Below, one piece after another: positions 1-22,999 of a stretch of DNA of 22,999 nt (its first letter is position 1; every line of letters starts with the position of its first letter). This stretch comes from a virus. Its lineage: Duplodnaviria; Heunggongvirae; Uroviricota; Caudoviricetes. A program made the position numbers and the translations under genes. The stretch is from the IMG/VR virus record IMGVR_UViG_2706794690_000005; one strand, 5' to 3'. The notes under the pieces were generated by a model. That model saw only the letters and a program-made list of their open reading frames with translations. It did no database searches and was not told where the DNA came from.

Positions 1-102
1 TTTCATAAGGAACAGTGAAGTAAGATCTAAGAGGAGTTAAATTTTATACAGTATAATCATAATATTGCAGCAAGGTGGTTATAATTGAAAGAATATTTAG
101 AT

Positions 103-1560
103 ATGAATACATCTCATGTAAGAGTTGTTACTCATATGTGTGGGTTCCTGGTTTGGCTCTATAGTCTTTCAATGTTGCCACCAATGGTTGTAGCATTGTT
201 TTATAAAGAAAAAAGCCTGTTCGTTTTCTTTATAACTTTCGTTATATTTTTTTGCATTGGTGGCGGAGCGTGGTATACAACTAAGAAATCTGGCATTCAA
301 TTACGTACCCGTGATGGGTTTATTATAATTGTAATGTTTTGGATTTTGTTTTCTGTTATTAGTGCATTCCCTTTATGGATTGACTCAGAACTTAATTTAA
401 CGTTCATTGATGCTCTGTTTGAAGGGGTTTCTGGAATAACAACAACAGGAGCAACTGTAATTGATGATGTTAGTTCATTACCTCGGGCATATTTGTACTA
501 TCGGTCACAGTTAAATTTTATAGGTGGTTTAGGAGTTATTGTTCTGGCGGTTGCAGTATTGCCATTATTGGGTATTGGTGGTGCAAAGCTTTATCAGTCA
601 GAAATGCCGGGGCCATTTAAGGATGACAAACTCACTCCCCGCCTGGCCGATACGTCACGGACACTGTGGATAACTTATTCTTTATTAGGTATTGCTTGTA
701 TTGTCTGTTATAGACTTGCAGGAATGCCTTTGTTTGATGCTATTTGTCACGGGATTTCCACAGTTTCGCTTGGTGGTTTCTCAACTCATAGCGAGAGTAT
801 CGGATATTTTAATAACTATTTGGTTGAGCTGGTGGCTGGTTCTTTTTCCCTGCTATCGGCTTTCAACTTCACTCTTTGGTATATTGTTATTAGCAGAAAA
901 ACGATAAAACCTTTAATCAGAGATATTGAACTTCGTTTCTTTCTGTTAATAGCCTTAGGGGTGATCATTGTTACCTCTTTCCAGGTCTGGCATATAGGTA
1001 TGTATGACTTGCATGGAAGTTTTATTCATTCGTTTTTTCTTGCCAGCTCCATGCTCACTGATAATGGTTTAGCTACGCAGGATTATGCAAACTGGCCCAC
1101 GCACACGATAGTGTTTTTGCTGTTGTCAAGTTTCTTTGGGGGATGTATAGGTTCAACCTGTGGTGGAATTAAGTCACTTCGATTTCTTATACTTTTCAAA
1201 CAAAGCAAACACGAGATAAATCAGCTTTCTCATCCCAGAGCGTTGTTGAGTGTAAATGTAGGAGGGAAGATAGTTACAGATCGTGTAATGAGGTCTGTAT
1301 GGAGTTTCTTTTTTCTTTATACTCTCTTCACGGTGTTTTTTATACTGGTGTTAAATGGTATGGGATATGATTTTCTTACATCATTTGCAACAGTGGCTGC
1401 ATGTATTAATAATATGGGATTAGGTTTTGGGGCTACTGCATCGTCATTCGGAGTGCTTAATGACATTGCAAAATATTTAATGTGCATAGCTATGATTCTT
1501 GGTCGCCTTGAAATTTATCCTGTTATTATATTGTTTTCAGGTTTTTTTTGGCGCTCCTAA
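103..1560 (+). CDS. trkG: Trk-family potassium uptake membrane protein (TrkG-like), prophage cargo gene
   Basis: 485-codon ORF from ATG 103 (ORF track begins at an upstream TTG at 85); very hydrophobic multi-pass membrane protein with repeated glycine-rich pore-like segments (GITTTGATV, GGLGVIV, LGGFSTH, IGSTCGGI) typical of TrkH/TrkG; markedly AT-rich compared with the rest of the window; matches my recollection of E. coli TrkG, which is carried by the Rac prophage. Confidence 0.8.
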   Translation: MNTSHVRVVTHMCGFLVWLYSLSMLPPMVVALFYKEKSLFVFFITFVIFFCIGGGAWYTTKKSGIQLRTRDGFIIIVMFWILFSVISAFPLWIDSELNLTFIDALFEGVSGITTTGATVIDDVSSLPRAYLYYRSQLNFIGGLGVIVLAVAVLPLLGIGGAKLYQSEMPGPFKDDKLTPRLADTSRTLWITYSLLGIACIVCYRLAGMPLFDAICHGISTVSLGGFSTHSESIGYFNNYLVELVAGSFSLLSAFNFTLWYIVISRKTIKPLIRDIELRFFLLIALGVIIVTSFQVWHIGMYDLHGSFIHSFFLASSMLTDNGLATQDYANWPTHTIVFLLLSSFFGGCIGSTCGGIKSLRFLILFKQSKHEINQLSHPRALLSVNVGGKIVTDRVMRSVWSFFFLYTLFTVFFILVLNGMGYDFLTSFATVAACINNMGLGFGATASSFGVLNDIAKYLMCIAMILGRLEIYPVIILFSGFFWRS

Positions 1561-7387: not shown

Positions 7388-8483
7388 ACGGCTGCGTGAT
7401 GAATCAATTGCTCATGCAGTCTGGATATCCCGCTATAGCACTGGCGTGGCTGCCAGAATGGTGAAAATACTGAATGACAGCGATGCGGAACTTACTGCTC
7501 GCCTGCTGATAGCACTGGACAGCCTCGATCCAGGTAGTTTTACCGTTAAGCGCCTGGAGTCACTTCTGGCGAGCGTCAGAGAGGTTAACCGCACTGCTAT
7601 TAACAGCATGTTTACCAGTCTCTCCGGAGAGCTGAACGAGCTGGCAATTTATGAGGCTGGTTATCAGTTAAGTCTGTTTGATTCTATGCTACCTGATTTT
7701 GTTGCTGATGTTCACCCTCTGGTTGGTATCTCTCCTGATGCACTTTATGCCGCTGCAATGGCGCGACCATTCCAGGGACGACTGCTCAGTGAGTGGGCCT
7801 CAGATCTTGAGGCGGATCGGCTCAGACGCATAACAAATACAGTGCGTCAGGGTTTTTTGCTGGGGGATACCAATGAGCAGATCGCAAGAAAAATTCGGGG
7901 ACATGTCAGTAAGGGATTTCAGGATGGTGCATTGCAGATGAGCCGGGCTAATGCGGCCAGCATTGCAAAAACAGCGGTTGGACATCTTGCTGCTACTGCC
8001 CGTGAGAGTTTTGCCAGCGCGAATAATGATTTGATTAAGGGTAAGCAATGGTTATCAACGCTTGATAATCGTACTACGCCACAATGTCGAATCAGGGATC
8101 GCCTCAAATATACGCTGAATAATAAACCTGTAGGTCACAGCGTGCCTTATTTGCAGGGGCCGGGAAAAATTCATTTCTGCTGCCGCTCAACGGAAACGTT
8201 CATTCTGAAATCAGCGAAGGAACTGGGTATTGATGTTCGCGATATTTCCCCGGCTGAGCGGGCCAGCATGGATGGCGTGGTGGCCGGAGATACAACCTAC
8301 AGGGAATGGTTTTTGCGTCAGCCTTACACCAGACAAAAACAGATTGTGGGGGAAAGCCGAGCAAAGCTGATTCGGGATGGTGGTATGTCGCCAGATGAAT
8401 TTTACACCGATAAAGGCGAATGGCTGACGCTGAAGCAGCTCCGTGAGCGTGATGCACAGGTATTCAGAAAAGCAGGGATTTAA
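7368..8483 (+). CDS. head morphogenesis / minor capsid protein (phage Mu F-like family)
   Basis: 371-aa ORF overlapping the portal gene 3' end by 20 nt; central region resembles Mu gpF / SPP1 gp7-type minor head proteins; position after portal. Confidence 0.6.
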   Translation: MMQTVNERLRDESIAHAVWISRYSTGVAARMVKILNDSDAELTARLLIALDSLDPGSFTVKRLESLLASVREVNRTAINSMFTSLSGELNELAIYEAGYQLSLFDSMLPDFVADVHPLVGISPDALYAAAMARPFQGRLLSEWASDLEADRLRRITNTVRQGFLLGDTNEQIARKIRGHVSKGFQDGALQMSRANAASIAKTAVGHLAATARESFASANNDLIKGKQWLSTLDNRTTPQCRIRDRLKYTLNNKPVGHSVPYLQGPGKIHFCCRSTETFILKSAKELGIDVRDISPAERASMDGVVAGDTTYREWFLRQPYTRQKQIVGESRAKLIRDGGMSPDEFYTDKGEWLTLKQLRERDAQVFRKAGI

Positions 8484-12387: not shown

Positions 12388-13350
12388 GTGAGTTCAGGTG
12401 CAAAGGTTATCTCGGCATTTATCCGGGAGACGGTTGCAGGCACTACGCCAGCAAGTGGTGACTGGAGTTTATTAAAACGCACAAGCTGGGGAGTAAAACC
12501 CACCCAGAATAAAGGCGAAAATAATGAGATTGGTGGCTCCCGGATGGCTCAGGGGGCGACGCCTGGCACTGTGGATGTCGGCGGTGATGTTGGTACCAAA
12601 TTTCGCTGGGGTCAACATGATGATTTTCTTGCATCCTGTTTCGGCGCGGAATGGTCAGGCGATTCTCTGACAATGGGGAATGAGCGAATAACATTTTCTC
12701 TGGCGACCTATGCGTCCGATGTCGGAATTGCCTCTGTCGTCAGAGGAGCGCAGGTTGGCTCATGGAAAATGCAGATCCCTAACGACGGCGATATTACAGC
12801 GACCGTAACCTTTGCCGGACTGGACTGGGAATCAAAGGCCGATGATACGAATTTTATCAAAGGCGAACCTGTGGATAGTGCAGGAAAGCTACGTTATTCG
12901 TTTAAGGAGGTTTCAGCAGTAAGCCTGAATGGTGTTGCCGGAGGTAACGGTTTTTGTATCGACAGTTTTGATATTCAGTTCGATAACAAACTCCAGACAC
13001 AGCGTTGTATCGGGACTGGCTCGCCTTATGCAGGAGCAAATATTCCGACTACTTTTACACCGTCCGGTACGGTGACGCTTTCATGGTCTAAAGCCGCGTG
13101 GGAAATCTGGAGTAAAACACTGACTGGAGAAACAGTTCCGTTCAGCTTCACGCTTTCGAATGGAGAGGGGGCATACACTTTCAGTTTCCCGAAGGTTCAG
13201 GTGTCAGGTGAATGGCCTGATGGGGGTAATAGCGACATTATCCAGGTTCAATTGAGCATTACCGCAGCAGATGAAGCACCTACGATAACCAGAAAAAAAA
13301 ATTCCCCGGCTGCCGTGATCGCAAAAGCCAGTGCTGAGGCGATTAGTTGA
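12388..13350 (+). CDS. major tail (tube) protein
   Basis: 320-aa ORF with GTG start preceded by AGGAGG; Gly/Ser/Thr-rich, beta-rich composition; located directly upstream of the chaperone pair and tape measure gene. Confidence 0.55.
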   Translation: MSSGAKVISAFIRETVAGTTPASGDWSLLKRTSWGVKPTQNKGENNEIGGSRMAQGATPGTVDVGGDVGTKFRWGQHDDFLASCFGAEWSGDSLTMGNERITFSLATYASDVGIASVVRGAQVGSWKMQIPNDGDITATVTFAGLDWESKADDTNFIKGEPVDSAGKLRYSFKEVSAVSLNGVAGGNGFCIDSFDIQFDNKLQTQRCIGTGSPYAGANIPTTFTPSGTVTLSWSKAAWEIWSKTLTGETVPFSFTLSNGEGAYTFSFPKVQVSGEWPDGGNSDIIQVQLSITAADEAPTITRKKNSPAAVIAKASAEAIS

Positions 13351-14333: not shown

Positions 14334-17300
14334 ATGGCAGAGCAAACCTCGCGTCTCGCAATAATTATTGATAGCACTGGAGCGAAAAATAATGCTGACA
14401 ATCTGACCTCCTCATTAGTCAAAATGACGCAGGCTGGGGAAACTGCTGCAAATAGCGCAGGGAAAGTGACTAAGGCAACAGAAGATGAGAAGAACGCGCT
14501 CGCAAAATTAAAAGCAGCTATTGATCCAGTTGGTGCCGCAATTGATACTGTCGGTCGACGCTATTCTGAATTAAAGAAATTTTTCGATAAAGGGCTTATT
14601 GATAAAGAAGAATATGAATTTCTTGTCCGTAAACTTAATGAAACCACAGAGGAATTGAGCGGGGTTGCGCAAGCGCAGAGAGAAGCCGAGAAGGCCGGAA
14701 AACTTGCTGCCGCCCAGCAGGAAGCGCAGGCTCAGGCCTTTCAAAGAATGCTGGACAAGATCGACCCTCTGGCTGCGGCGCTAAGAAATCTTGAACAACA
14801 GCATGATGAACTTAATGCTGCGTTTGCATCCGGGAAAATAAATGGTTCTCAGTTTGAGAATTATAGCCGAAAAATACAGGAAACACGGCGAGAGCTTACC
14901 GGAGAGGCTCAGGCAGAGCGAGAAGCAGCAAAAGCGCATGATGAACAGGTTGTTGCTTTGCAACGTCTGATTGCTCAACTTGATCCTGTCGGAACTGCTT
15001 TTAATCGTCTGGTAGAACAACAGAAACAGCTCAATGAAGCAAAAGCTAAGGGGATGCTTTCTCCTGAAATGTATGAGGAGCTTTCTGGAAAACTTCGTGC
15101 TATGCGGAGTGAGCTTGAGGTTACTCAATCACAATTAAGCAAAACCGGAATGTCGGCAAAACAAACGGCTTTTGCTATGCGCATGTTGCCTGTACAAATG
15201 ACGGATATTGTTGTTGGGTTGTCCACTGGTCAGTCGCCATTTATGGTGTTAATGCAGCAGGGCGGCCAGCTAAAAGATATGTTCGGTGGGATTGGCCCGG
15301 CGATCAAAGGTGTAGGTTCTTATGTGCTGGGATTAATTAATCCTTTTACCCTGGCCGCAGCAGCCGTTGGGGTCTTAGGACTGGCTTACTATAAAGGCTC
15401 TCAGGAGCAGGACGAATTTAATAAATCTCTTATTCTTACCGGAAATCAGTTGGGGACAACCAGCGGGCAATTGGGCGATATAGCTCAACGTGCCGGGAAT
15501 GCGGCTGATTCGACAACTGGTGCTGCGGCGGCAGTATTAAATCAGCTTGTGCGTTCGGGAAAGGTAGCGAGCAGTTCGCTGGAGCAAGTGACGACAGCGA
15601 TAGTAAAAACGAGCGAAGTAACAGGAATATCAACCGAACAACTGGTTAATGACTTCAATGAAATTGCAAAGGATCCTGTCAGTGCCATATCAAAACTTAA
15701 TGATCAGTACCATTTTCTGACACTTGCGACTTATAACCAGATTAAGGCGCTACAGGATGAAGGGAACCAGCAGGAGGCCGCCCGCATTGCGACAGAAGAA
15801 TACTCATCCTCAATGATCCAGCGCACCAACCAGATTAAAGAAAATCTTGGTTATCTTGAGACTGCATGGAAAGCTGTCGCAGACTCCGCAAAATGGGCAT
15901 GGGATTCCATGCTGGATATTGGCCGTGAGGCCTCCCTTGATCAAAAAATCTCAGATGTTCTCCGTCAAATTGATGAAATAGAAAAAAATACCCGACCCGG
16001 AGTTTTCGGGTTAGGTGGCATTGGAGATGGCGGAGCTCAAAATAAAAGGCTGGCACGATTAAAGCAGCAATTGGGCGTACTTCAAGCAGAAAAAATTGCT
16101 CAGGACGTACTAAATTCATCAATAAACGATTACAACAAGCGACAACAGGAAGGAATTGAACTCAGACAGAGAGCAGATGCCTTTTCAAAACAATATCAGA
16201 CCCGGGAGCAGCAGAGAGCTAGTGAACTTGCAAAACTGGAAAAGCTAAAGAATCAGTATTCAAAGGAAGAATATAATAATCTTATCGCTCAAATAAATGA
16301 GCGTTATAAAGATCCAAAGCAACCAAAGGCGAAAGGTTATTCTGATGATGCAGCCCAACGAATGATTGATCATCTGAATCAACAGAATGCGTTACTAAGT
16401 TCACAAGCTGAGTTGACCGTTAAATTAAGTTCCTCTGAACAGGAACTGGTTAAGTGGCGTCAGCGGATTGCCGACCTAGAGTCACGACCATCATCGAAAT
16501 TAACCCAGGATCAGAAATCGCTTCTCTTACACCGGGAAGAAATAACCACGTTGATGGAGAAAAATGTTGCGATTGAAAAAAATAACAGGCTAATCAAGGA
16601 ATCCGCCGAAATAACAGCATGGCGTGATTCATTGCAGGCTTCGATTGATAATCGTCAGCAGGGGTATGATATTCAGATTGCTGGTTATGGGGTTGGCGAT
16701 AAAAATCAGCAACGCCAGCAGGAATTACTGCGGATTGAACATGGATATAACAATCAGCGTCTGCAACTTGAACGTGACTATGCAGATAAATCCCGTGGAA
16801 TGTCAGATCATGTTTTTCAAGAGAAAATGCAGGCTCTGAATGATGCTCTGGAACGGGAAAAAGAAATTGTCAGACAGAAAAACGAGCAGCTCGATATTCA
16901 GGCAGGAGACTGGGTTAGTGGTGCCTCCCAGGGATTCAATAACTGGCTGGATGACACTAAGGATATCAGTGAGCAGATAAAATCAACCACGACTCAGATG
17001 TTTGATGGGATGACCGATGCGCTGGGTGATTTTGTCACGACAGGCAAGGCAAATTTTCGTTCTTTCGCTACTTCCGTGATTTCGGATCTTAGTCGAATAG
17101 CATTAAAGGCTTCAATTACTGGGATTTTCGACAGCATTAGTAACAGTTCTTCTGGGGGGATTTTAGGAACTATCGGGAGTGCTATTAGTAAATTTATTCC
17201 GAATGCAAAGGGCGGTGTTTATGAGTCTCCGTCATTGAGCACGTATTCGAACGGTATTTATGATTCCCCGCAATTTTTTGCTTTTGCAAAAGGGGCTGGT

Positions 17301-17567
17301 GTTTTTGGTGAGGCTGGACCGGAAGCCATTATGCCATTAACACGAACTTCCGATGGTTCTCTTGGTGTCAGAGCTATTAATAGTAAAAGTGGTAATGGAG
17401 GCGGAGATATTACCTATGCCCCTGTATACCAAATCACTATTCAAAATGACGGCCAGAATGGAGAGATTGGCCCTCAGGCAATAAAAGCACTTATGGGGAT
17501 GGTTGATCAGCGGGTGCAGGGCAATCTGTTAAATATGCGACGTGATGGGGGAATGTTAAGTGGCTAA
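14334..17567 (+). CDS. tail tape measure protein
   Basis: 1077-aa ORF; long Ala/Gln/Glu-rich helical N-terminal part with three tandem ~70-aa repeats; hydrophobic segment near the middle ([33 protein letters not shown]); C-terminus resembles the lambda gpH C-terminal fragment at 18775-19086; canonical position. Confidence 0.8.
14500..15150 (+). repeat. three imperfect tandem repeats (~220-240 nt each) inside the tape measure gene
   Basis: protein-level repeats sharing a recurring IDP/LDP-started unit with a conserved spacing of Leu, Gly, Tyr-Glu and an AQAxREAxKA tail: [22 protein letters not shown].../[22 protein letters not shown].../[22 protein letters not shown]... Confidence 0.6.
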
Positions 17568-17898
17568 TACGGAAGAATTTCACTGGTTACCAGAGGATGG
17601 AATGAAAACAGAAAATAAACCATCGATAAAAACTGTAAGATTTGGTGATGGTTATGAGCAACGAAGTCCAAATGGACTTAATCATTCTCTGCGCGTTTTC
17701 ACCTGTGATTTCAAAGTTGAGGCGAATGAACGTGATTCATTTGAAAAATTTTTAGCCCGGCATGAAGGCTATAAATCTTTTTTTTGGCGCCCGCCGGGTA
17801 TTAACAGAAAAATCAGAGTGGTGTGTCGAACGTGGTCAGCGACAGAACATATCACCTATACCGATTTTTCGTGTCAGTTTGACGAAGTGGTGATCTGA
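17560..17898 (+). CDS. minor tail protein, lambda gpM-like (divergent copy)
   Basis: 112-aa ORF with GTG start overlapping the tape measure stop; shares the motif VRFGDGY.QR.P.GLN and similar length with the second gpM-like ORF at 19083-19412 but is otherwise divergent. Confidence 0.6.
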
Positions 17899-18516
17899 TG
17901 CAGGACATACAACAGGAAACGCTGAATGAATGCATTCGTGCGGAGCAGTCGGCCAGCGTGGTGCTCTGGGAAATCGACCTGACCGAGGTAGGCGGGGATC
18001 GCTACTTTTTCTGCAATGAGCAGAACGAGAAAGGAGAGTCTGTCACCTGGCAGAGTCGGCAGTATCAGGCCTATCCCATTCAGGGGAGTGGATTTGAGAT
18101 GAACGGCAAAGGTGCCAGTGCAAGGCCAACGCTGAAAGTCTCTAATCTGCACGGCATGGTCACCGGGATGGCGGAAGACCTGCAGAGTCTGGTCGGCGGA
18201 ACGGTGGTCAGGCGTAAGGTTTACGCCCGTTTTCTGGATGCGGTGAACTTCGTCAACGGAAACAGTGACGCCGATCCGGAGCAGGAGGTGATCAGCCGCT
18301 GGCGTATTGAGCAGTGCAGCGAACTGAGCGCGGTCAGTGCCTCCTTTGTACTGTCCACGCCGACGGAAACGGACGGCGCTGTTTTTCCGGGGCGCATCAT
18401 GCTTGCTAATACCTGCACCTGGACCTATCGCGGTGATGAGTGCGGTTATCACGGTCCGGCTGTCGCGGATGAATATGACCAGCCGACGTCCGATATCACG
18501 AAGGATAAATGCAGCA
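17898..18516 (+). CDS. L: minor tail protein L (lambda gpL-like), 3' end truncated by N gap
   Basis: ATGA overlap with upstream gene; 206 codons nearly collinear with the complete L copy at 19412-20110 (by eye roughly 85% nucleotide identity in the first ~250 nt, higher afterwards); reading frame runs straight into the N run at 18517. Confidence 0.7.
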
Positions 18517-18773
18517 NNNNNNNNNNNNNNNNNNNNNNNNNNNNNNNNNNNNNNNNNNNNNNNNNNNNNNNNNNNNNNNNNNNNNNNNNNNNNNNNNNNN
18601 NNNNNNNNNNNNNNNNNNNNNNNNNNNNNNNNNNNNNNNNNNNNNNNNNNNNNNNNNNNNNNNNNNNNNNNNNNNNNNNNNNNNNNNNNNNNNNNNNNNN
18701 NNNNNNNNNNNNNNNNNNNNNNNNNNNNNNNNNNNNNNNNNNNNNNNNNNNNNNNNNNNNNNNNNNNNNNNNN
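18517..18773. other. assembly gap (257 N)
   Basis: uninterrupted run of n characters; flanked upstream by a truncated L gene and downstream by the 3' end of a tape-measure (H) gene. Confidence 0.95.
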
Positions 18774-18774
18774 T

Positions 18775-19086
18775 GTTCACCGTGGTGAATTTGTCTTCAC
18801 GAAGGAGGCAACCAGCCGGATTGGCGTGGGGAATCTCTACCGGCTGATGCGCGGCTATGCGGAAGGTGGTTATGTGGGCGGTGCCGGAAGTCCGGCGCAG
18901 ATGCGGCGGGCTGAAGGCATTAATTTTAATCAGAACAATCACGTGGTGATTCAGAACGACGGTACGAATGGTCTGCCAGGTCCACAGATGATGAAGGCCG
19001 TGTATGACATGGCCCGCAAGGGTGCCCGTGATGAAATTCAGACACAGATGCGTGATGGTGGCCTGTTCTCCGGAGGTGGACGATGA
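18775..19086 (+). CDS. H: tail tape measure protein H, C-terminal fragment (5' end lost in gap)
   Basis: frame open from the gap edge; translation VHRGEFVFTKEATSRIGVGNLYRLMRGYAEGGYVG...DGTNG...KAVYDMARKGARDEIQTQMRDGGLFSGGGR matches my recollection of the lambda gpH C-terminus; stop overlaps the M start. Confidence 0.7.
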   Translation, partial: VHRGEFVFTKEATSRIGVGNLYRLMRGYAEGGYVGGAGSPAQMRRAEGINFNQNNHVVIQNDGTNGLPGPQMMKAVYDMARKGARDEIQTQMRDGGLFSGGGR

Positions 19087-19412
19087 AAACCTTCCGCTGG
19101 AAAGTGAAACCCGGTATGGATGTGGCTTCGGCCCCTTCTGTAAGAAAGGTGCGCTTTGGTGATGGCTATTCCCAGCGAGCGCCTGCCGGGCTGAATGCCA
19201 ACCTGAAAACGTACAGCGTGACGCTTTCTGTCCCCCGTGAGGAGGCCATGGTACTGGAGTCGTTTCTGGAAGAGCACGGGGGCTGGAAAGCCTTTCTGTG
19301 GACGCCGCCTTATGAGTGGCGGCAGATAAAGGTGACCTGCGCAAAATGGTCGTCGCGGGTCAGTATGCTGCGTGTTGAGTTCAGCGCAGAGTTTGAACAG
19401 GTGGTGAACTGA
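19083..19412 (+). CDS. M: minor tail protein M (lambda gpM-like)
   Basis: 109-aa ORF (MKTFRWKVKPGMDVASAPSVRKVRFGDGYSQRAPAGLNANLKTYSVTLS...), same length as lambda gpM; ATGA overlaps with both neighbours. Confidence 0.8.
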   Translation: MKTFRWKVKPGMDVASAPSVRKVRFGDGYSQRAPAGLNANLKTYSVTLSVPREEAMVLESFLEEHGGWKAFLWTPPYEWRQIKVTCAKWSSRVSMLRVEFSAEFEQVVN

Positions 19413-20110
19413 TGCAGGATATCCAACAGGAAACACTGAATGAATGCACCCGTGCGGAGCAGTCGGCCAGCGTGGTGCTCTGGGAAATCGATCTGACAGA
19501 GGTCGGTGGAGAACGTTATTTTTTCTGTAATGAGCAGAACGAAAAAGGTGAGCCGGTCACCTGGCAGGGGCGACAGTATCAGCCGTATCCCATTCAGGGG
19601 AGTGGTTTTGAACTGAATGGCAAAGGCACCAGTACGCGCCCCACGCTGATGGTTTCTAACCTGTACGGTATGGTCACCGGGATGGTGGAAGATCTGCAGA
19701 GTCTGGTCGGCGGAACGGTGGTCAGGCGTAAGGTTTACGCCCGTTTTCTGGATGCGGTGAATTTCGTCAACGGAAACAGTGATGCCGATCCGGAGCAGGA
19801 GGTGATCAGCCGCTGGCGCGTCGAGCAGTGCAGCGAACTGAGCGCGGTCAGTGCCTCCTTTGTGTTGTCCACGCCGACGGAAACGGATGGTGCTGTTTTT
19901 CCGGGGCGCATCATGCTGGCCAACACCTGCACCTGGACCTATCGCGGCGATGAGTGCGGTTATCACGGTCCGGCGGTCGCGGATGAATATGACCAGCCAA
20001 CGTCCGACATCACGAAGGATAAATGCAGCAAATGCCTGAGTGGCTGTAAGTTTCGCAATAACGTCGGCAACTTTGGCGGCTTCCTTTCCATTAACAAACT
20101 TTCGCAGTAA
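19412..20110 (+). CDS. L: minor tail protein L (lambda gpL-like), complete copy
   Basis: 232-aa ORF, same length as lambda gpL; C-terminal Cys-rich segment (DKCSKCLSGCKFRNN); followed 5 nt later by the K gene. Confidence 0.85.
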   Translation: MQDIQQETLNECTRAEQSASVVLWEIDLTEVGGERYFFCNEQNEKGEPVTWQGRQYQPYPIQGSGFELNGKGTSTRPTLMVSNLYGMVTGMVEDLQSLVGGTVVRRKVYARFLDAVNFVNGNSDADPEQEVISRWRVEQCSELSAVSASFVLSTPTETDGAVFPGRIMLANTCTWTYRGDECGYHGPAVADEYDQPTSDITKDKCSKCLSGCKFRNNVGNFGGFLSINKLSQ

Positions 20111-20115
20111 ATCCC

Positions 20116-20479
20116 ATGACAGAGACAGAATCAGCGATTCTGGCGCACGCCCGGCGATGTGCTCCAGCGGAGTCGTGCGGCTTCGTGGTAAGAACGCCGG
20201 AGGGGGAAAGATATTTCCCCTGCGTGAATATCTCCGGTGAGCCGGAGGCGTATTTCCGTATGTCGCCGGAAGACTGGCTGCAGGCAGAGATGCAGGGTGA
20301 GATTGTGGCACTGGTCCACAGCCACCCCGGTGGTCTGCCCTGGCTGAGTGAGGCCGACCGGCGGCTGCAGGTGCAGAGTGATTTGTCGTGGTGGCTGGTC
20401 TGCCGCGGGGCGATTCACAAGTTCCGCTGTGTGCCACATCTTACCGGGCGGCGCTTTGAGCACGGGGTGACGGACTGTT
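20116..20479 (+). CDS. K: tail assembly protein K (lambda gpK-like), 5' part, truncated by N gap
   Basis: ATG 20116; contains a JAMM/MPN-like metalloprotease motif HSHPGG...SEAD (about 20320-20350); frame runs into the N run at 20480. Confidence 0.7.
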
Positions 20480-21095
20480 NNNNNNNNNNNNNNNNNNNNN
20501 NNNNNNNNNNNNNNNNNNNNNNNNNNNNNNNNNNNNNNNNNNNNNNNNNNNNNNNNNNNNNNNNNNNNNNNNNNNNNNNNNNNNNNNNNNNNNNNNNNNN
20601 NNNNNNNNNNNNNNNNNNNNNNNNNNNNNNNNNNNNNNNNNNNNNNNNNNNNNNNNNNNNNNNNNNNNNNNNNNNNNNNNNNNNNNNNNNNNNNNNNNNN
20701 NNNNNNNNNNNNNNNNNNNNNNNNNNNNNNNNNNNNNNNGACAGAATCAGCGATTCTGGCGCACGCCCGGCGATGTGCGCCAGCGGAGTCGTGCGGCTTC
20801 GTGGTGAGAACACCGGAGGGGGAAAGATATTTTCCCTGCGTGAATATTTCCGGTGAGCCGGAGGAGTATTTCCGGATGGCTCCGGAGGACTGGCTGCAGG
20901 CAGAGATGCAGGGTGAGATTGTGGCGCTGGTCCACAGCCACCCCGGTGGTCTGCCCTGGCTGAGTGAGGCCGACCGGCGGCTGCAGGTGCAGAGTGATTT
21001 GTCGTGGTGGCTGGTCTGCCGCGGGGCGATTCACAAGTTCCGCTGTGTGCCGCATCTCACCGGGCGGCGCTTTGAGCACGGGGTGACGGACTGTT
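20125..21095 (+). repeat. direct repeat of the K-gene 5' region (about 355 nt per copy: 20125-20479 and 20741-21095) separated by the N gap
   Basis: the sequence after the gap restarts at K codon 4 and is collinear with 20125-20479 with scattered substitutions (for example EPEAYFRMSPEDW versus EPEEYFRMAPEDW). Confidence 0.8.
20480..20739. other. assembly gap (260 N)
   Basis: uninterrupted run of n characters; both flanks carry paralogous copies of the 5' part of the K gene. Confidence 0.95.
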
Positions 21096-21475
21096 ACACG
21101 CTGTTCCGGGACGCTTACCATCTGGCGGGGATTGAGATGCCGGATTTTCATCGTGAGGATGACTGGTGGCGTCACGGTCAGAATCTCTATCTGGATAATC
21201 TGGAGGCCACAGGGCTGTATCAGGTGCCGTTGTCAGCGGCGCAGCCGGGCGATGTGCTGCTGTGCTGTTTTGGTTCATCGGTGCCGAATCATGCCGCCAT
21301 TTACTGTGGTGACGGCGAGCTGCTGCACCATATTCCTGAACAACTGAGCAAACGAGAGAGGTACACCGACAAATGGCAGCGACGCACACACTCCCTCTGG
21401 CGTCACCGGGCATGGCACGCATCTGCCTTTACGGGGATTTGCAGCGATTTGGCCGCCGCATCGACCTTCGTGTGA
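20741..21475 (+). CDS. K: tail assembly protein K (lambda gpK-like; JAB/MPN plus NlpC/P60-like domains), start codon lies in the gap
   Basis: frame open from the gap edge to the stop at 21475; HSHPGG JAMM-like motif followed by a C-terminal region with a candidate NlpC/P60-type catalytic Cys (GVTDCYTLFRDAYH); ORF track shows only the internal GTG 20801. Confidence 0.75.
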   Translation, partial: TESAILAHARRCAPAESCGFVVRTPEGERYFPCVNISGEPEEYFRMAPEDWLQAEMQGEIVALVHSHPGGLPWLSEADRRLQVQSDLSWWLVCRGAIHKFRCVPHLTGRRFEHGVTDCYTLFRDAYHLAGIEMPDFHREDDWWRHGQNLYLDNLEATGLYQVPLSAAQPGDVLLCCFGSSVPNHAAIYCGDGELLHHIPEQLSKRERYTDKWQRRTHSLWRHRAWHASAFTGICSDLAAASTFV

Positions 21476-22020
21476 AAACGGGGGCCGAAGCCATCCGGGC
21501 ACTGGCCACACAGCTCCCGGCATTTCGTCAGAAACTGAGCGACGGCTGGTATCAGGTGCGCATTGCCGGGCGTGATGCAGGCGAAAATGAATTATCTGCC
21601 CGTCTTAATGAACCGCTGGCAAATGGTGCCGTGATCCACATCGTTCCGCGTCTGGCGGGTGCCAAAAGTGGCGGTGTGTTTCAGGCGGTGCTGGGTGCGG
21701 CGCTGATTGCGGTGGCATGGTGGAACCCTGTGGGCTGGCTGGGGGCCGCGGCTGTATCGGGTATGTATGCAGCAGGGGCCAGTATGATCCTGGGTGGTGT
21801 GGCGCAGATGCTGGCACCGAAAGCCAGGACGCCCACGGCAGCCAGTACAGATAACGGCAAACAGAACACGTATTTCTCGTCACTGGATAACATGGTTGCC
21901 CAGGGTAATGTTCTGCCTGTTCTGTACGGGGAAATGCGCGTGGGGTCACGTGTGGTTTCTCAGGAGATCAGCACGGCAGACGAAGGGGATGGTGGTCAGG
22001 TTGTGGTGATTGGTCGCTGA
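21373..22020 (+). CDS. I: tail assembly protein I (lambda gpI-like)
   Basis: 215-aa ORF overlapping the K 3' end; begins MAATHTLPLASPGMARICLYGDLQRFGRRIDLRV and ends EMRVGSRVVSQEISTADEGDGGQVVVIGR, as I recall for lambda gpI; Gly/Ala-rich hydrophobic middle. Confidence 0.8.
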   Translation: MAATHTLPLASPGMARICLYGDLQRFGRRIDLRVKTGAEAIRALATQLPAFRQKLSDGWYQVRIAGRDAGENELSARLNEPLANGAVIHIVPRLAGAKSGGVFQAVLGAALIAVAWWNPVGWLGAAAVSGMYAAGASMILGGVAQMLAPKARTPTAASTDNGKQNTYFSSLDNMVAQGNVLPVLYGEMRVGSRVVSQEISTADEGDGGQVVVIGR

Positions 22021-22080: not shown

Positions 22081-22999
22081 ATGGGTAAAGGCAGCAGTAA
22101 GGGGCATACCCCGCGCGAAGCGAAGGACAACCTGAAGTCCACGCAGCTGCTGAGTGTGATCGATGCCATCAGCGAAGGGCCGGTTGAAGGTCCGGTGGAT
22201 GGATTAAAAAGCGTGCTGCTGAACAGTACGCCGGTGCTGGACAGTGAGGGGAATACCAACATCTCCGGCGTCACGGTGGTGTTCCGGGCAGGTGAGCAGG
22301 AGCAGACACCGCCGGAGGGGTTTGAATCCTCCGGCTCCGAGACGGTGCTGGGTACGGAAGTGAAATATGACACGCCGATCACCCGCACCATCACGTCGGC
22401 AAACATCGACCGTCTGCGCTTTACCTTCGGTGTGCAGGCACTGGTGGAAACCACCTCAAAAGGGGATCGGAATCCGTCGGAGGTCCGCCTGCTGGTTCAG
22501 ATACAGCGTAATGGTGGCTGGGTGACGGAAAAAGACATCACCATTAAGGGCAAAACCACCTCGCAGTATCTGGTCTCGGTGGTGGTGGATAACCTGCCTC
22601 CGCGCCCGTTCAGTATCCGGATGCGCAGGATGACACCGGACAGCACCACAGACCAGCTGCAGAACAAAACGCTCTGGTCGTCATACACCGAAATCATCGA
22701 TGTGAAACAGTGCTACCCGAACACTGCACTGGTCGGCGTACAGGTGGACTCGGAGCAGTTCGGCAGCCAGCAGGTGAGTCGTAATTATCATCTTCGCGGG
22801 CGCATTCTGCAGGTGCCGTCGAACTATAACCCGCAGACGCGACAATACAGCGGTATCTGGGACGGAACGTTAAAACCAGCATACAGCAACAACATGGCCT
22901 GGTGTCTGTGGGATATGCTGACCCACCCGCGCTACGGCATGGGGAAACGTCTTGGTGCGGCGGATGTGGACAAATGGGCGCTGTATGTCATCGGCCAGT
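22081..22999 (+). CDS. J: tail tip / host specificity protein J (lambda gpJ-like), N-terminal part; continues beyond window
   Basis: ATG 22081 after GAGG; translation MGKGSSKGHTPREAKDNLKSTQLLSVIDAISEGPVEGPVDGLKSVLLNSTPVLD... matches my recollection of the lambda J N-terminus almost residue for residue; open to the window end. Confidence 0.85.
   Translation, partial: MGKGSSKGHTPREAKDNLKSTQLLSVIDAISEGPVEGPVDGLKSVLLNSTPVLDSEGNTNISGVTVVFRAGEQEQTPPEGFESSGSETVLGTEVKYDTPITRTITSANIDRLRFTFGVQALVETTSKGDRNPSEVRLLVQIQRNGGWVTEKDITIKGKTTSQYLVSVVVDNLPPRPFSIRMRRMTPDSTTDQLQNKTLWSSYTEIIDVKQCYPNTALVGVQVDSEQFGSQQVSRNYHLRGRILQVPSNYNPQTRQYSGIWDGTLKPAYSNNMAWCLWDMLTHPRYGMGKRLGAADVDKWALYVIGQ

Follow-up and report, generated by a model that had tools for sequence, protein, structure and literature searches.

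How two different phage tail modules come to stand side by side in a single prophage sequence is the question raised by an E. coli draft record, CWUJ01000064.1 (WGS draft, assembly GCA_001248745.1), whose entire length of 22,999 nt is the window analyzed here. Upstream of a run of N, the order of tail genes is tape-measure gene H, a gpM-like gene, and L; downstream, the sequence resumes in the 3' end of a different H gene, followed by a second M and a second L. A preliminary description of the locus offered two readings of this order, either that a contig from a paralogous lambda-like prophage was scaffolded in or that the genome carries a true tandem partial duplication of the H-M-L block, and held that the sequence cannot distinguish them. 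This judgment proved too pessimistic, as comparisons with other genomes favor scaffolding. We put the probability at about 0.93 that the juxtaposition reflects an assembly or scaffolding artifact and not a duplication.

Contigs and tail genes of the window

Two runs of N, at positions 18517 to 18773 (257 N) and 20480 to 20739 (260 N), divide the window into three contigs. The left contig (1 to 18516) begins at trkG, also carries ynaK-like and ydaY genes, continues through head and tail genes, and ends within L. The middle contig (18774 to 20479; 1,706 nt) holds the 3' end of a second H, complete M and L genes, and the 5' end of a K gene; we designate the genes of this contig H', M', L', and K'. 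The right contig (20740 to 22999) contains K, I, and the 5' part of J. A Pfam profile search backed every tail gene assignment in the window, and all of these genes lie on the plus strand. Rfam and tRNA scans found no RNA genes in the window.

Two observations concern the left contig upstream of its H gene. The G+C content of trkG (85 to 1560; window 1 to 1560) is 0.33 to 0.41, versus ∼0.45 to 0.60 in the remaining prophage, in keeping with trkG being foreign cargo of Rac-type prophages. The tail tube gene (12388 to 13350) is intact in the window (320 amino acids [aa]) and in strain NCTC10444, and is annotated as frameshifted in strain E7 (L001, 13890 to 14851); apart from this annotated frameshift, E7 is 99.8% identical to the window.

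The tail genes upstream of the first gap are as the preliminary description had them. H (14334 to 17567) encodes a 1077-aa protein with matches to TMP_2, TMP_4, and Tape_meas_lam_C, and its counterparts in E7 and NCTC10444 are annotated as phage tail tape measure protein. It is followed by M (17560 to 17898), encoding a gpM-like minor tail protein of 112 aa (Phage_min_tail, 1.2e-31), and by the gene for minor tail protein L (17898 to 18516), which differs from L of the NCTC10444 Rac-site prophage by 1 mismatch. L had been described as cut off mid-gene. It is indeed cut by the contig end, and the cut lies at nt 619 of 699, i.e., after 206 of 232 codons or ∼89% of the way through the gene; the match to Phage_tail_L accordingly covers profile positions 1 to 179 of 206.

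Past the first gap (18517 to 18773), the sequence does not go on with the remainder of L. It resumes with the last 313 nt of H' (18774 to 19086), in which a single stray base just after the N run precedes 103 codons and a stop codon, as had been reported (∼103 codons). This fragment matches the common lambda-type allele (H protein of 853 aa) at 100% identity, and it appears to come from the tape-measure gene of another prophage. M' (19083 to 19412) encodes a lambda-type protein of 109 aa (Phage_min_tail, 7e-40), and L' (19412 to 20110) is a complete, mosaic allele encoding 232 aa (Phage_tail_L). The middle contig ends with nt 1 to 364 of K' (20116 to 20479), corresponding to the JAB/MPN domain part (Prok-JAB). 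The second M and the second complete L of the preliminary description were thus both recovered.

After the second gap (20480 to 20739), the right contig starts with nt 9 to 744 of K (20740 to 21475), which carries both JAB and NlpC/P60 domains (Prok-JAB, NLPC_P60). This K is 99.0% identical to K of strain NCTC9082, where it lies directly downstream of L, and it is assigned to the Rac-site prophage. The gene for tail assembly protein I follows (21373 to 22020; Lambda_tail_I). Its start codon is uncertain: the longest open reading frame begins at 21373, the gene caller placed the start at 21412, and analogy with the 549-nt annotation in NCTC10444 and NCTC9082 would place it at ∼21472. The 5' part of the gene for tip attachment protein J (22081 to 22999; FNIII-A_GpJ) runs off the end of the record.

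Two diverged modules and two non-colinear joins

That two different tail modules are juxtaposed was borne out by comparing their genes. The C termini of H and H' share 38% identity over 52 aa, and the M and M' proteins share 41% identity with no alignment at the DNA level. L and L' are 90.6% identical in DNA, with 194 of 206 residues in common, and the last 22 nt of L in the left contig are identical to L'. The G+C content climbs from ∼0.44 to 0.45 over the 3' end of H and M (17500 to 18000) to 0.57 from L on (18000 to 18500), and this rise coincides with the start of ∼90% or higher identity between Rac-type and lambda-type modules. The coinciding shifts in G+C content and identity probably mark the M/L boundary of the Rac-type module as a mosaic joint.

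The alignment of the right contig with reference K genes begins at K nt 9. K' and this K therefore overlap by 356 nt, over which they differ by 13 mismatches; the same first 356 nt of the right-contig K differ from K of the E7 Rac-site prophage by 1 mismatch. Since the right contig goes back to K nt 9 after the middle contig has reached K' nt 364, the second N run is also non-colinear, a point missed in the preliminary description. With both N runs non-colinear, the middle contig is an island, and both gaps are probably false joins. A tandem duplication was a poor fit to these data because the M and M' proteins share only 41% identity and the H and H' C termini 38%, and because two separate, non-colinear novel junctions would be needed, each of them within an N run.

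The flanking contigs are neighbors in related genomes

We compared the contigs with complete E. coli genomes, the closest of which are relatives belonging to other strains. The left contig aligned end to end with NCTC10444 (99.96% identity, 7 mismatches in 18,516 nt) and with E7 (99.76%), and an end-to-end alignment was also obtained with NCTC9082. The distance from the end of the left contig to the start of the right contig is exactly 93 nt in each of the three. The right contig is directly contiguous in NCTC9082, to which it is 99.0% identical; this is the upper limit of its identity to the closest complete genomes. The 93-nt bridge consists of L nt 620 to 699, a 5-nt spacer, and K nt 1 to 8, and it is identical in E7, NCTC10444, and NCTC9082. 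In a repaired version of the record, the sequence bridging positions 18516 and 20740 would be AATGCCTGAGCGGTTGTAAGTTCCGCAATAACGTCGGCAACTTTGGCGGCTTCCTTTCCATTAACAAACTTTCGCAGTAAATCCCATGACACA. The annotated locus in each of these genomes contains a single copy of H, M, L, K, I, and J.

To look for the scaffolded arrangement, we built a query with the 3' end of the Rac-type H plus M as one half and the 3' end of the lambda-type H' plus M' as the other, segments that do not cross-hybridize. None of the 5,426 complete E. coli genomes contained this arrangement at ≥80% query coverage. Each half of the query was present in thousands of these genomes, never in one place. As a positive control, we used the end of the left contig joined through the 93-nt bridge to K of the right contig. 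Colinear matches to the repaired order, H 3' end-M-L-(93 nt)-K, came from 707 complete E. coli genomes, and the best was a single BLAST piece at 99.6%.

In the matching genomes, the locus is the Rac-site prophage (trkG, ydaY, stfR/tfaR), adjoining sitABCD-ompN. The prophage of the window resembles the E. coli Rac-site family in that its counterparts in E7 and NCTC10444 carry Rac gene names and adjoin sitABCD-uspF-ompN. It differs from the defective Rac prophage of K-12 in retaining a full set of head and tail genes.

Both modules of the window resemble the tail-tip operon of phage lambda in their gene order, H-M-L-K-I-J, as seen in the resident module after its repair and in the home module of the middle block. 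They also share with it the Pfam families TMP, Phage_min_tail, Phage_tail_L, JAB plus NlpC/P60, Lambda_tail_I, and GpJ. In contrast to phage lambda, the resident module has a longer H protein (1077 versus 853 aa) and an M protein that is only 41% identical to the lambda-type M', and the head module that precedes it is P22-like or of another non-lambda type.

Origin and composition of the middle contig

The middle block has a normal home in other prophages. In complete genomes, it matches best (97.8% identity) to classical lambda-type prophages whose H is 853 aa long, such as the one in E371, and it is 95 to 96% identical to sequenced lambda-like phages such as mEp332, in which the corresponding genes carry the names H, M, L, and K. 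Its identity to intact lambda-type tail modules of other genomes and IMG/VR contigs reaches 98.9%, and no match above this value was found. In E7, the best match lies ∼630 kb from the Rac-site prophage. In gap-free IMG/VR contigs (e.g., L008 and L011), the block is colinear within a lambda-type module. Among the matches listed for M', all six places showed an intact V-G-T-H(853 aa)-M-L-K-I-J module. We also considered the Qin-site prophage of NCTC10444 as the source of the middle contig and rejected it, as the identity was only 88.9%.

The middle contig equals the common lambda-type allele but for 19 differences, and all of these are clustered: two at 19425 to 19426, fifteen within 19686 to 19909, and two at 20386 and 20406. 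The bases at 19425 to 19426 and at 20386 and 20406 are those of the Rac type. The 224-nt patch in L' at 19686 to 19909 agrees fully (100%) with a third L allele that 39 complete-genome records contain, among them plasmids of 47 to 68 kb. A simple chimera of the Rac-type and the common lambda-type sequence was rejected, since 7 bases of this patch are private with respect to both and match the third allele.

It is conceivable, at somewhat less than even odds, that the middle contig, besides being misplaced, represents a chimeric path or a collapsed consensus through at least three paralogous L/K copies, which would be compatible with a scaffolding artifact. The clustering of the differences and the three origins of the bases favor this idea, as does the finding that the exact L' protein occurred in no other contig of the indexed collection besides this record, while the exact protein of the adjoining M' was listed in 7,799 index blocks. 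Against it, natural gene conversion among lambdoid phages also yields patchworks of such a scale. To judge from its sequence, the middle block would have arisen either as a natural mosaic or as a chimeric path in the assembly, and the main conclusion would be unaffected either way.

Why the assembly may have broken at L and K

The left contig ends, the right contig starts, and the middle contig ends within blocks of perfect identity between paralogues, of 22, 39, and 37 nt, respectively. Short identity blocks at contig ends are typical of assembly-graph branch points, which these may well represent. In NCTC10444, the Rac-site and Qin-site prophages have ∼5.1 kb in common, from L nt 314 through J, with 1 mismatch. 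Upstream of L nt 314, the same two regions (L002, 29898 to 35345, and L003, 11289 to 16736) diverge strongly, which places a sharp mosaic boundary inside L. Repeats exceeding the fragment size break assemblies (PMC5320598). By analogy, a repeat like the 5.1-kb L-K-I-J stretch of NCTC10444 is of the kind that would break short-read assemblies exactly at L/K.

Backward jumps within H-M-L-K were also found at N joins in 3 other draft IMG/VR scaffolds (L006, L009, and L012). These jumps occur at single-N joins, at ∼5497 in L006, at ∼8215 in L009, and at 8199, 9658, and 11532 in L012. In another contig (L010, 13426 to 13446), K restarts without any N, at an 11-nt microhomology, GGCGATGTGCT. Such E. 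coli draft entries in IMG/VR may therefore hold false tail gene duplications.

SSPACE and GapFiller are greedy and able to make false joins (PMC5320598). That a Velvet/SSPACE-type pipeline lay behind the present assembly is only a guess; a literature search found no papers mentioning CWUJ01 or GCA_001248745.

A proposed history of the scaffold

We propose that, in this short-read draft assembly, the left contig (1 to 18516) and the right contig (20740 to 22999) are two pieces of one Rac-site lambdoid prophage, whose true locus would be an ordinary, single H-M-L-K-I-J operon. The assembly would have broken in the ∼93-nt stretch where L and K are nearly identical to their paralogues in the genome's other lambdoid prophages. 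The source of the middle contig would be a separate prophage, of lambda type and with an H of 853 aa, and the scaffolder would have slotted this contig between two true neighbors, the N runs being its gap estimates. It may have been misled by read pairs or alignments in common L/K sequence that linked the contig to both neighbors, or by reference-guided ordering.

This account is favored because both joins are non-colinear, because the neighbors lie 93 nt apart in relatives, because the deposited order is absent from complete genomes, and because the middle block has its normal home in other prophages. Among the two options of the preliminary description, the scaffolding of a paralogous contig is thus the one strongly supported, by the spacing of the flanks, the second coverage of K, the count of 0 of 5,426 genomes versus 707, and the location of M' elsewhere. 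Three traits expected of such an artifact were found: the flanks are non-colinear, removal of the block restores a known colinear sequence, and the contigs end in blocks of identity between paralogues.

The locus thereby resembles repeat-induced mis-scaffolding of lambdoid prophage paralogues in short-read E. coli drafts, with which it shares breaks at identity blocks, a short paralogous contig set between true neighbors, and N runs as gap estimates. There is no difference of substance in the window apart from the positive gap sizes of 257 and 260. They are not what would be expected had the scaffolder recognized the overlaps, and they count against the artifact account.

Alternative explanations

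The deposited order could instead be genuine if 1.7 to 2.2 kb of lambda-type sequence, H'(3')-M'-L'-K'(5'), had been inserted between L and K of the Rac-site prophage through recombination with a coresident prophage. The order as deposited speaks for such an insertion. Lambdoid prophages recombine often, the 90 to 96% identity of L and K between the modules would provide homology for an exchange, and L' is itself mosaic. Moreover, the closest complete genomes come from other strains (≤99.0% identity for the right contig and ≤98.9% for the middle one), which leaves room for a strain-specific rearrangement. However, homologous exchange in L/K swaps alleles and would not make the joins of L (nt 1 to 619) to H' and of K' (nt 364) to K (nt 9). 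It would take two illegitimate junctions, each located precisely within an N run. The juxtaposition was found in none of the 5,426 complete genomes, against 707 with the simple order, and 93 nt separate the flanks in relatives with up to 99.96% identity over 18.5 kb. The resulting operon would hold a truncated L, a fragment of H, and two truncated copies of K. We consider a real insertion very improbable on these grounds. Even if real, the deposited order would be an insertion of foreign, diverged genes (41% aa identity between M and M') and not a duplication; the tail operon would then contain two diverged M/L pairs along with broken L and K copies, a snapshot of illegitimate recombination between prophages.

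We also considered whether the N runs mask real, colinear sequence of equal length, as one collection contains N-masked stretches. After 257 colinear nucleotides, the sequence would resume at approximately K nt 172, yet it resumes in the H' 3' end, and the sequence beyond the second run begins again at K nt 9. In addition, the NCBI record itself carries the same coordinates and length. In-place masking was rejected, as the flanks are non-colinear for any filling of 257 or 260 nt, and we assign this reading a negligible chance, well below that of a real insertion. A scaffolding artifact remains by far the most probable source of the juxtaposition.

Implications

The preliminary description rightly warned that synteny is unsafe across 17.9 to 20.5 kb. 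The range to which the warning applies should reach ∼21.5 kb, past the second gap. Gene counts, prophage boundaries, and synteny over ∼17.9 to 21.5 kb of the record are best regarded as artifacts, and the gene content there should be disregarded. Likewise, pseudogene calls in this region (the truncated L, the H fragment, and the two K fragments) should not be taken to mean that the tail operon was duplicated, has decayed, or is mosaic. The locus presents no novel feature, and its significance is one of data hygiene only. In draft E. coli assemblies, and in IMG/VR entries that stem from them, mis-scaffolding recurs in the H-M-L-K region of lambdoid prophages, and errors arising there can contaminate analyses of pangenomes and of phage mosaicism.
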